Source of the DNA: Escherichia coli
GTDB lineage: Bacteria > Pseudomonadota > Gammaproteobacteria > Enterobacterales > Enterobacteriaceae
NCBI RefSeq assembly: GCF_003334315.1
Contig: NZ_QOWR01000065.1
Length of the DNA stretch: 24,206 nt
Direction: 5' to 3' (one strand)
Shown here: piece by piece, positions 12,018 through 20,574 of the stretch
Layout: each line of letters opens with the position of its first letter
How positions within the stretch are numbered: the first letter of the stretch is position 1
Translations under genes and position numbers: made by a program
Notes under the pieces: model-generated
Told to the model about the DNA's origin: nothing
Databases searched by the model: none
What the model saw: the letters and a program-made list of their open reading frames with translations, nothing else

Positions 12018-12351
<334 letters not shown>

Positions 12352-12352
12352 C

Positions 12353-12438
12353 GTAGGCCTGATAAGACGCGTCAGCGTCGCATCAGGCAAATGTGCCGGC
12401 CATTGTCGGATGCGGCGCGACCGCCTTATTCGACCTAC
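12353..12438. repeat. REP elements (BIME-like pair of palindromic units)
   Basis: GTAGGCCTGATAAGACGCGTCAGCGTCGCATCAGGC, followed by a degenerate unit ending GCGGCGCGACCGCCTTATTCGACCTAC. Both resemble E. coli REP palindromes. Confidence 0.6.
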
Positions 12439-12803
12439 ACGACACACATTTCCCTGCCAAATTTGCGCCCCATATCTCACTATCCATTAACGGATTTGTG
12501 ACAGAAACCATTGTCTTTTTTTATATTTGCTTAAATCTTTTTTTGCGTTACTTATGGCTGGCCCTGGCATTTTCCGCTGTGCGTTTTAGCGTTCATGGTA
12601 TTAATCGCTCAGATATCCACCTTTTCCTCAGATTTTTTTCATTAAATGCATAAAACTTAATCACCAAATGTTGCTAAATATTAAGCTGATTGTTCTGGTC
12701 ATGTTGGAGTAGCACAAATTTCTCTGCTGCAAATAGCTGTTTGAAGTTTTTTTAATCTTTGTTTGTGGATTCTCACCGTTGGTGTAAATCCCGGTTGGCT
12801 GTA

Positions 12804-12840
12804 TTGACGTTTTCACATTCTGTTGACAGATTGTAGGTCA
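12804..12840 (+). promoter_or_regulatory. Putative dppA promoter (-35 TTGACG, weak -10), giving a leader of about 165 nt
   Basis: TTGACG at 12804-12809 with a weak -10 (CAGATT) 17 bp downstream. Position matches my recollection of a long dppA leader. Weak sequence evidence only. Confidence 0.3.
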
Positions 12841-12972
12841 CGAGGGGCATTTTATGGAGGATCCGCACTGTTACACTGATGTTAATTAGTACGGCATCCC
12901 CACCTCATAACGTTGACCCGACCGGGCAAAAAACAAAAAAGGTCAGGCAGCGACAACCCACTGCAAAGGGTT

Positions 12973-12997
12973 AAAACAACAAACATCACAATTGGAG
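12973..12997 (+). promoter_or_regulatory. C/A-rich element next to the dppA Shine-Dalgarno; likely GcvB sRNA target site
   Basis: AAAACAACAAACATCACAA (12973-12991) lies immediately upstream of GGAG (12994-12997). GcvB is known to pair with C/A-rich elements in dppA and opp leaders. Confidence 0.5.
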
Positions 12998-13004
12998 CAG
13001 AATA

Positions 13005-14612
13005 ATGCGTATTTCCTTGAAAAAGTCAGGGATGCTGAAGCTTGGTCTCAGCCTGGTGGCTATGACCGTCGCAGCAAGTGTTCAGGCTAAAACTCTGGTT
13101 TATTGCTCAGAAGGATCTCCGGAAGGGTTTAACCCGCAGCTGTTTACCTCCGGCACCACCTATGACGCCTCTTCCGTCCCGCTTTATAACCGTCTGGTTG
13201 AATTTAAAATCGGCACCACCGAAGTGATCCCGGGCCTCGCTGAAAAGTGGGAAGTCAGCGAAGACGGTAAAACCTATACCTTCCATCTGCGTAAAGGTGT
13301 GAAGTGGCACGACAATAAAGAATTCAAACCGACGCGTGAACTGAACGCCGATGATGTGGTGTTCTCGTTCGATCGTCAGAAAAACGCGCAAAACCCGTAC
13401 CATAAAGTTTCTGGCGGCAGCTACGAATACTTCGAAGGCATGGGCTTGCCAGAGCTGATCAGTGAAGTGAAAAAGGTGGACGACAACACCGTTCAGTTTG
13501 TGCTGACTCGCCCGGAAGCGCCGTTCCTCGCTGACCTGGCAATGGACTTCGCCTCTATTCTGTCAAAAGAATATGCTGATGCGATGATGAAAGCCGGTAC
13601 ACCGGAAAAACTGGACCTCAACCCAATCGGAACCGGTCCGTTCCAGTTACAGCAGTATCAAAAAGATTCCCGTATCCGCTACAAAGCGTTTGATGGCTAC
13701 TGGGGCACCAAACCGCAGATCGATACGCTGGTTTTCTCTATTACCCCTGACGCTTCCGTGCGTTACGCGAAATTGCAGAAGAATGAATGCCAGGTGATGC
13801 CGTACCCGAACCCGGCAGATATCGCTCGCATGAAGCAGGATAAATCCATCAATCTGATGGAAATGCCGGGGCTGAACGTCGGTTATCTCTCGTATAACGT
13901 GCAGAAAAAACCACTCGATGACGTGAAAGTTCGCCAGGCTCTGACCTACGCGGTGAACAAAGACGCGATCATCAAAGCGGTTTATCAGGGCGCGGGCGTA
14001 TCAGCGAAAAACCTGATCCCGCCAACCATGTGGGGCTATAACGACGACGTTCAGGACTACACCTACGATCCTGAAAAAGCGAAAGCCTTGCTGAAAGAAG
14101 CGGGTCTGGAAAAAGGTTTCTCCATCGACCTGTGGGCGATGCCGGTACAACGTCCGTATAACCCGAACGCTCGCCGCATGGCGGAGATGATTCAGGCAGA
14201 CTGGGCGAAAGTCGGCGTGCAGGCCAAAATTGTCACCTACGAATGGGGTGAGTACCTCAAGCGTGCGAAAGATGGCGAGCACCAGACGGTAATGATGGGC
14301 TGGACTGGCGATAACGGGGATCCGGATAACTTCTTCGCCACCCTGTTCAGCTGCGCCGCCTCTGAACAAGGCTCCAACTACTCAAAATGGTGCTACAAAC
14401 CGTTTGAAGATCTGATTCAACCGGCGCGTGCTACCGACGACCACAATAAACGCGTTGAACTGTACAAACAAGCGCAGGTGGTGATGCACGATCAGGCTCC
14501 GGCACTGATCATCGCTCACTCCACCGTGTTTGAACCGGTACGTAAAGAAGTTAAAGGCTATGTGGTTGATCCATTAGGCAAACATCACTTCGAAAACGTC
14601 TCTATCGAATAA
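13005..14612 (+). CDS. dppA: Periplasmic dipeptide-binding protein of the dipeptide ABC transporter, 535 aa
   Basis: Full-length ORF with signal peptide (MRISLKKSGMLKLGLSLVAMTVAASVQA) and solute-binding protein family 5 features. First gene of dppABCDF. Confidence 0.97.
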   Translation: MRISLKKSGMLKLGLSLVAMTVAASVQAKTLVYCSEGSPEGFNPQLFTSGTTYDASSVPLYNRLVEFKIGTTEVIPGLAEKWEVSEDGKTYTFHLRKGVKWHDNKEFKPTRELNADDVVFSFDRQKNAQNPYHKVSGGSYEYFEGMGLPELISEVKKVDDNTVQFVLTRPEAPFLADLAMDFASILSKEYADAMMKAGTPEKLDLNPIGTGPFQLQQYQKDSRIRYKAFDGYWGTKPQIDTLVFSITPDASVRYAKLQKNECQVMPYPNPADIARMKQDKSINLMEMPGLNVGYLSYNVQKKPLDDVKVRQALTYAVNKDAIIKAVYQGAGVSAKNLIPPTMWGYNDDVQDYTYDPEKAKALLKEAGLEKGFSIDLWAMPVQRPYNPNARRMAEMIQADWAKVGVQAKIVTYEWGEYLKRAKDGEHQTVMMGWTGDNGDPDNFFATLFSCAASEQGSNYSKWCYKPFEDLIQPARATDDHNKRVELYKQAQVVMHDQAPALIIAHSTVFEPVRKEVKGYVVDPLGKHHFENVSIE

Positions 14613-14648: not shown

Positions 14649-14820
14649 TGCCTGATGCGCTCCGCTTATCAGGCCTACGAAAATTCTGCAATGTATTGAA
14701 TTTGCACGATTTTGTAGGCCGGATAAGGCGTTAACGCCGCATCCGGCATAAACAAAGCGCACTTTGTCAACAATCTGTATACCCGGTGGCGCTGTGCCTC
14801 TGCGTGCAGCGCCATCCGGC
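14649..14820. repeat. BIME: cluster of about three REP palindromic units between dppA and dppB
   Basis: TGCCTGATGCGCTCCGCTTATCAGGCCTAC (about 14649-14687), GTAGGCCGGATAAGGCGTTAACGCCGCATCCGGCA (14714-14748), and CCGGTGGCGCTGTGCCTCTGCGTGCAGCGCCATCCGGC (14782-14820). Confidence 0.75.
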
Positions 14821-20506: not shown

Positions 20507-20574
20507 AGAGAAAACCCCCGCACGTTGCAGGTATGCACCTGACAACACCACGGGGGCTAATCTTGACTCTAGAC
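20507..20574 (-). ncRNA. rdlD: Rdl antisense RNA, antitoxin of the ldrD type I toxin-antitoxin pair
   Basis: The minus strand reads GTCTAGAGTCAAGATTAGCCCCCGTGG...GCGGGGGTTTTCTCT, a stem-loop ending in a U-tract, upstream of and antisense to the ldrD leader. Ends are approximate. Confidence 0.6.

Follow-up and report, generated by a model that had tools for sequence, protein, structure and literature searches.

GcvB is produced under an ample supply of glycine and amino acids. Its action on dppA, known from both E. coli and Salmonella Typhimurium (Sharma et al. 2007; Pulvermacher et al. 2008; Urbanowski et al. 2000), is a textbook example of sRNA repression of nutrient uptake through a C/A-rich enhancer by the ribosome-binding site, and dppA counts as a verified target of the R1 region of GcvB in both organisms, with high RIL-seq, CLASH and MAPS counts (PMC9299463). 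In Salmonella the dppA target site contains four ACA motifs in 15 nt that are essential for expression; expression dropped more than 100-fold when all four were randomised, and by 96% when the 15-nt segment was deleted (PMC3879156). Such ACA enhancers silenced by GcvB are known for yifK and dppA (Yang et al. 2014, PMC3879156), and the locus studied here shares with them four ACA motifs in 15 nt by the Shine-Dalgarno sequence, overlapping the GcvB site; the activity of the enhancer was measured in Salmonella, whereas here it is the layout that is seen, so that the function would carry over by analogy.

Other R1 targets (oppA, gltI, livJ, livK and argT) likewise combine a single-stranded C/A target, pairing with R1 and repression of amino-acid or peptide uptake. 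The gltI element, about 45 nt upstream of the AUG, is a detached enhancer, whereas the dppA element abuts the Shine-Dalgarno sequence, and direct occlusion is therefore expected. The anti-sRNA AgvB of EHEC prophages (Tree et al. 2014, PMC4104026) imitates the C/A-rich site recognised by R1 and is a competitor of dppA mRNA both for GcvB and for the Hfq distal face, but AgvB works as a decoy RNA instead of forming the leader of an mRNA, and it is absent from the DNA analysed here.

We analysed a stretch of 24,206 nt from E. coli (assembly GCF_003334315.1, contig NZ_QOWR01000065.1; hereafter the window), and in particular the noncoding DNA preceding dppA at 12440-13004. This DNA is almost certainly best explained as the dppA regulatory region, comprising a GcvB R1 target that doubles as an ACA enhancer and a 165-nt leader transcribed from a sigma-70 promoter. 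With its leader identical to that of K-12, the dppA site has the gene, site, C/A target, R1 seed and Hfq dependence of the GcvB-dppA system described above and is that system itself, beyond an analogue. We found no substantive difference from it; the E. coli site lacks an exact CACAACA, and a hairpin at 12955-12972 occurs in some genera. The feature is thus an already known GcvB target and ACA enhancer, and its confirmation means that it was recognisable from raw sequence by a first-stage reader, and nothing more. The leads that come out of the analysis are a regulatory map that splits the 165-nt leader from about 345 bp of conserved upstream DNA, a candidate Hfq loop, and a possible further target, yhjV.

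Results

Genomic setting of the dppA upstream region

The gene content of the window (eptB, proK, dppABCDF and yhjV) is that of the E. coli chromosome, and a 1.2-kb query across the dppA upstream region was 100% identical to many complete E. coli chromosomes. The order eptB, tRNA-Pro, RtT sRNA, dppA is the annotated order in these identical genomes, and likewise in MG1655. The features that frame the noncoding stretch are the following.

12018-12094: tRNA-Pro(CGG), proK (ARAGORN and Rfam)
12129-12262: RtT-like element (Rfam)
12356-12435: REP element, Rfam naRNA4 (Rfam)
13005-14612, + strand: dppA coding sequence, 535 aa, periplasmic dipeptide-binding protein (ORF list and RefSeq annotation of identical genomes)

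The REP element directly precedes the stretch at 12440-13004, which extends up to the start codon of dppA. Its GC content, in 200-nt windows over 12400-12999, is 0.345-0.45, versus about 0.5 for the genes that flank it. In RefSeq, neither an identical E. coli genome nor MG1655 has an annotated feature between the proK/RtT elements and dppA. A search of 12440-13004 against Rfam returned zero matches even at E<=1, and a known structured RNA was ruled out on that ground. Small proteins were rejected as well: the region has 17 E. coli ORFs with 15 aa or more, each of them intact in at most 8 of 18 other genera, and no frame is preserved across genera; the two uORFs inside the leader, one of 11 aa at 12854 and one of 31 aa at 12879-12974, are intact in 0 of the 18. 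The initial, sequence-only reading of about 560 bp of AT-rich noncoding DNA before dppA is therefore borne out by the low GC content and by the lack of a conserved ORF or of annotation.

Upstream of this stretch, the 3′ end of proK, together with a terminator-like hairpin and downstream sequence, is repeated at about 12078-12175 and 12246-12343, with a period of about 168 bp. The RtT RNA spans the stretch between the two proK-end copies, and the REP/naRNA4 element comes next. Since about 700 of 5426 E. coli genomes cover less than 80% of the 1.2-kb query, the copy number of the proK-end repeat appears to vary among E. coli genomes.

The dppA promoter and its 165-nt leader

The promoter and the transcribed leader were located as follows.

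12804-12832, + strand: dppA promoter, with -35 TTGACG (12804-12809), a 17-bp spacer, extended -10 TG (12824-12825) and -10 CAGATT (12827-12832); identity 0.90 over 18 genera
12840-13004, + strand: dppA 5′ untranslated leader, 165 nt, starting at A12840 (published fusion, MG1655 identity, strand-specific structure)
12911-12952, + strand: conserved hairpin with a 17-nt A-rich loop, GGGCAAAAAACAAAAAA (12924-12940) (MFE, unpaired probabilities, RNAalifold)

The promoter is of the sigma-70 type with an extended -10, and its start, A12840, is taken from the design of a published fusion: the E. coli dppA::gfp fusion on the native 5′ UTR begins at -165 (PMC1807950), which corresponds to A12840, 7 nt past the -10 hexamer. 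A generic promoter scan missed this promoter, because CAGATT matches just 3 of the 6 positions of the -10 hexamer. The core pattern TTGACG-17-TGaCAGATT is nevertheless near-invariant, and the top conserved noncoding block in an alignment of 25 Enterobacteriaceae upstream regions is the promoter itself, TGTATTGACGTTTTCACATTCTGTTGACAGATTGTAGG. The promoter motif TTGACAGATTGT was present in 39 fetched loci, with leaders that are almost all 157-179 nt long. The transcription-start supplements for Shigella do not list dppA, and a literature search on the enterobacterial dppA promoter returned nothing relevant.

The position of the transcription start relative to the C/A element had been set in advance as a check on the proposed GcvB site; from the published fusion start at -165 and the promoter, A12840 lies 133 nt upstream of the element. 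The leader had also been described as long, with room for additional control inputs. Its length has to be corrected from about 560 nt to just 165 nt, while the additional inputs stand: an ACA enhancer and high-affinity binding by Hfq have both been published for dppA of Salmonella.

Conserved structure in the leader is strand-specific (alifold z = -10.4 on the + strand versus -1.45 on the - strand, column shuffles). RNAalifold on 22 genera gave a 5′ stem and the hairpin with the A-rich loop, and left the C/A element unstructured; the A-rich hairpin contains compensatory pairs, for example A-U in 14 sequences and G-C in 3. In E. coli the A-rich loop carries an (ARN)5 run with one mismatch, which starts at -79 to -76. 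We infer that the loop at 12924-12940, about 35-60 nt upstream of the GcvB site, is a candidate (ARN)n site for the distal face of Hfq, and put it no higher than that because only about half of the 22 genera have a comparable ARN5 run (at most one mismatch) within or close to the loop. Such a site would be consistent with the tight binding of Hfq to the 5′ 166 nt of Salmonella dppA, which it binds about 10 times more tightly than GcvB (PMC4104026).

A short hairpin (12955-12972, AACCC-ACUGCAAA-GGGUU) separates the A-rich hairpin from the C/A element. It is found in the Escherichia/Citrobacter/Kluyvera group and several other genera and is absent in the remaining aligned genera; two genera have insertions of about 50-130 nt at its position.

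Conserved DNA upstream of the promoter

Conservation across genera begins abruptly at about 12485-12495 and runs to the start codon. Mean identities to E. coli over 18 genera are given below; for comparison, the value is 0.63 at dppA third codon positions.

12440-12493: segment following the REP element, 0.36
12494-12530: block 1, 0.73, TTTGTGACA...TTTTTTTATAT
12545-12618: block 2, 0.73, GCATTTTCCGCTGTGCGTTTTAxCGTTC ... GGTATTAATCGCTCAGAT
12709-12734: block 3, 0.78 (measured over 12706-12730), with the inverted repeat AGCA (12711-12714)-N10-TGCT (12725-12728)
12746-12765: block 4, 0.89 (measured over 12745-12765), GTTTTTTTAATCTTTGTTTG, 75-94 bp upstream of the transcription start

Block 2 occurs, always equally far from the ATG, in 13 of 19 Enterobacteriaceae genera. 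In Erwiniaceae, Yersiniaceae and Hafnia the spacing between block 4 and the ATG is unchanged, and block 3 also occurs in some of their genera (some Yersinia, Serratia and Hafnia). E. coli has one copy of the upstream stretch, with an identity of 95% or more in 5423 of 5426 genomes. The inverted repeat of block 3 has its centre some 120 bp before the transcription start and may, judging from its symmetry, be a binding site of a dimeric regulator.

The upstream region has no structure specific to the + strand (alifold z = -2.2 on + and -4.7 on -), and its main helix, which alifold finds on both strands, is the block 3 palindrome. For these reasons we read 12494-12839 as promoter and DNA-level regulatory sequence, and 12436-12493 as an unconserved spacer after the REP element. 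The conserved DNA at 12494-12800 would then bind transcription factors. Lrp has been reported to affect dppABCDF (PMC4474525); by-eye comparison of the blocks with the consensus sequences of CRP, IHF, Lrp, PhoB, ArcA, Cra and TyrR gave only partial matches, and none was assigned. Block 2 contains CTGGCATTTTCCGCTG, which was considered as a sigma-54 promoter and rejected, as its GG-to-GC spacing is 8 and not 10 nt and the GG is unconserved. There is some chance, though we hold it only tentatively, that the four blocks belong to a transcriptional input not yet described, whether in the form of a multi-protein upstream complex or of a second promoter with a leader of about 470 nt.

On another reading, the greater part of the 560 bp would be a very long leader with its promoter at 12498-12527 and its start at about 12534, and the blocks would then act as RNA. 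The promoter scan did report a sigma-70-like match within block 1, GTGACA (12498-12503)-18-TATATT (12522-12527), which agrees with the consensus at 10 of 12 positions and sits where cross-genus conservation begins, with a nearly invariant -35-like half. One such match is, however, expected by chance in the region scanned, the -10-like hexamer ends in a T (position 6) that is unconserved, and the strongest, near-invariant promoter is the one at 12804-12832. The structural evidence also points away from RNA, since the strand-specific signal of the 165-nt leader has no counterpart upstream, where the main helix is a palindrome of the DNA type. We consider the very long leader unlikely and retain the 165-nt leader from A12840.

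The C/A-rich element and its conservation

The translation initiation region of dppA contains the following features, with TT at 12992-12993 and the ATG at 13005-13007.

12973-12991, + strand: C/A-rich element AAAACAACAAACATCACAA (= AAAACAACAAACAUCACAA), GcvB R1 target and translational enhancer
12974-12999, + strand: predicted footprint of the GcvB R1 duplex (-31 to -6 from the AUG), covering the Shine-Dalgarno sequence; the core variant reaches about -10
12994-12997, + strand: Shine-Dalgarno GGAG, 7 nt before the AUG, invariant in both cross-genus alignments

The element had been placed immediately 5′ of the GGAG; its coordinates are correct, but the two are not adjacent, as the TT intervenes. 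It contains C or A at 18 of 19 nt and carries four ACA motifs (12976-78, 12979-81, 12983-85 and 12988-90) in 15 nt. In the whole window it is the sole 19-nt segment, on either strand, with at least 18 C/A, and mononucleotide shuffles gave 2.1 +/- 3.0 such segments. It also holds the window's only 10-nt perfect Watson-Crick complement to GcvB R1 (12982-12991 with GcvB nt 65-74), where 1.2 are expected. By composition and k-mer counts alone the element is therefore not significant, as about 1-2 such sites arise by chance per 24 kb; its significance rests on its position at the dppA start, on its conservation, and on published experiments with the identical sequence. The heptamer CACAACA, the consensus of GcvB R1 targets (Sharma et al. 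2011, as quoted in a passage of PMC4104026), does not occur exactly in the dppA site, where AACAACA and AUCACAA each match 6 of 7 positions; this heptamer is a statistical consensus and not a requirement.

To follow the element across species, we retrieved dppA orthologues with a degenerate pattern in the coding sequence (EGFNPQLFT), so that conservation of the leader could not bias their choice, and scored the 50 nt before the start against the R1 of E. coli. The 93 Enterobacterales orthologues had medians of 17 of 19 C/A, a 10-nt complement to R1 and 5 ACA motifs, versus medians of 12 of 19, 0 nt and 0 ACA in 16 homologues from outside the order (Burkholderiales, Alphaproteobacteria and others). 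All three measures differed at p<1e-8, a value that overstates independence because the sequences are related. The C/A-rich stretch beside the GGAG is thus present in the 93 Enterobacterales orthologues and absent from the 16 others. Among 5426 complete E. coli genomes, 5420 have a single copy of the 101 nt that surround the element, with an identity of at least 99%.

Pairing of the leader with GcvB

The gcvB gene does not lie within the window and is annotated in E. coli MG1655 at 2942696-2942901; we used the full-length 206-nt MG1655 sequence as the query. When the leader and GcvB were hybridised as whole molecules with RNAduplex, they paired end to end in a way that had no meaning, and this result was discarded. 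A scan of the window against R1 by raw duplex energy was likewise rejected: GC-rich coding sites dominated it, and the dppA site fell outside the top 20. Raw energy is not a valid discriminator here, because the G/U-rich R1 pairs on paper with any GC-rich site, and we therefore turned to an accessibility-corrected scan and to a comparison of translation initiation regions.

In the corrected scan of full-length GcvB against positions -165 to +100 of the mRNA, each interaction was scored, in the manner of IntaRNA, as the hybrid energy plus the cost of opening both RNAs. All 12 of the 12 best interactions fell on 12974-12999 of the target and on nt 56-83 of GcvB, the G/U-rich R1 (commonly placed at about nt 63-90). 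The best duplex, of about 20 bp, joins 12974-12995 to GcvB 61-83 (hybrid energy -24.9, opening costs 1.1 and 8.5, net -15.3 kcal/mol), and an extended duplex joins 12974-12999 to GcvB 56-83 (hybrid -29.2, net -14.8 kcal/mol). The C/A element is predicted to be single-stranded, with unpaired probabilities of 0.77-0.99 and an opening energy of 1.1 kcal/mol. Among the window's 21 long ORFs, each scored at its most favourable candidate start, dppA ranked first in R1 complementarity, C/A content and duplex energy at the translation start. The prediction of a GcvB-leader duplex, the second check set in advance, therefore came out at the C/A element, with every one of the 12 best interactions on the site and on R1.

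Besides the anatomy of the region, the predicted duplex, the accessibility and the promoter with its conservation, the present analysis establishes identity with K-12: from -165 to codon 14, dppA is identical to that of MG1655, and published K-12 data on GcvB- and Hfq-dependent repression therefore apply directly. A dppA::gfp fusion covering exactly this segment was repressed 3.2-fold by GcvB, 4.9-fold in rne701 and 1.6-fold in an hfq deletion (PMC1807950), and deletion of gcvB raised dppA::lacZ from 103 to 554 units (PMC1557403). In a passage of Tree et al. (PMC4104026), deletion of R1 and footprinting are cited as rigorous proof of direct pairing between GcvB and dppA. GcvB- and Hfq-dependent repression of the leader is thus taken from the literature, as are, from Salmonella, the function of the enhancer and the binding of Hfq to the mRNA, which would hold here by analogy. 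At the level of individual bases, pairing in E. coli dppA is probable, on the prediction made here and on these secondary citations. Together, the predicted duplex, the accessibility and the published repression of the identical K-12 leader uphold the proposal that the C/A element is a repression site of the GcvB type.

The mechanism is almost certainly the following. Transcription starts at A12840 from the extended -10 sigma-70 promoter and gives the 165-nt leader, in which the single-stranded C/A element 5′ of the Shine-Dalgarno sequence has two coupled roles. Its four ACA motifs would boost translation initiation, and the element is also where R1 of the Hfq-dependent GcvB, encoded elsewhere on the chromosome, pairs. 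Spanning about 20 bp from -31 to about -10, and reaching -6 when extended, the duplex would mask both enhancer and Shine-Dalgarno sequence; binding of the 30S subunit would be blocked, and DppA synthesis would be repressed in rich medium. GcvB is said to block 30S binding on dppA in vitro, an observation attributed to Sharma and colleagues in 2007.

The C/A element might instead be a translational enhancer only, its ACA motifs aiding recruitment of 30S or S1, with the GcvB pairing incidental or minor. The losses of more than 100-fold and of 96% in Salmonella (PMC3879156), the identical layout of four ACA motifs in 15 nt here and the high ACA counts in all 93 Enterobacterales orthologues would all fit such a role. 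The same study, and others, nevertheless demonstrate repression of dppA by GcvB through this site, GcvB and Hfq both affect the E. coli fusions (PMC1807950, PMC1557403), and C/A-rich stretches are absent outside Enterobacterales. The two roles are coupled and not alternative, and an enhancer alone is very improbable, so that we keep the element as both enhancer and GcvB target. Least credible of all is that the AT-rich stretch is a non-functional spacer or horizontally acquired, H-NS-silenced DNA, as its GC content of 0.35-0.45, its T-tracts and the REP and RtT repeats just upstream might suggest, because 12494-12839 is 0.7-0.9 identical over 18 genera against 0.63 at third positions, block 4 is kept in other families of the order, the DNA is single-copy and at least 95% identical in all but three of the E. 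coli genomes, and the spacer-like part is just 12436-12493.

Other sites in the window

At the start of yhjV (20147-20122, - strand), which encodes a putative transporter, the sequence reads AUG CAG CAC AAC ACA CUA UCG AAA CAC AAU, and the start was confirmed against MG1655 b3539. An exact R1 consensus heptamer, CACAACA, lies at +7 to +13, and pairing with GcvB nt 68-92 is predicted at -14.3 kcal/mol after correction for accessibility, versus -15.3 for dppA. The segment GACAACACA at the yhjV start is kept in E. albertii. None of the papers covered by our literature search links yhjV to GcvB; on the strength of the predicted pairing, yhjV is a possible unlisted GcvB target.

Three further regions of the window matched Rfam families above the gathering score, all on the - strand: the cspA thermoregulator 5′ UTR at 394-821; ES036 (CssrF) in the dppA-dppB spacer at 14671-14713; and rdlD, the antitoxin RNA of the ldrD/rdlD toxin-antitoxin pair, at 20509-20574.
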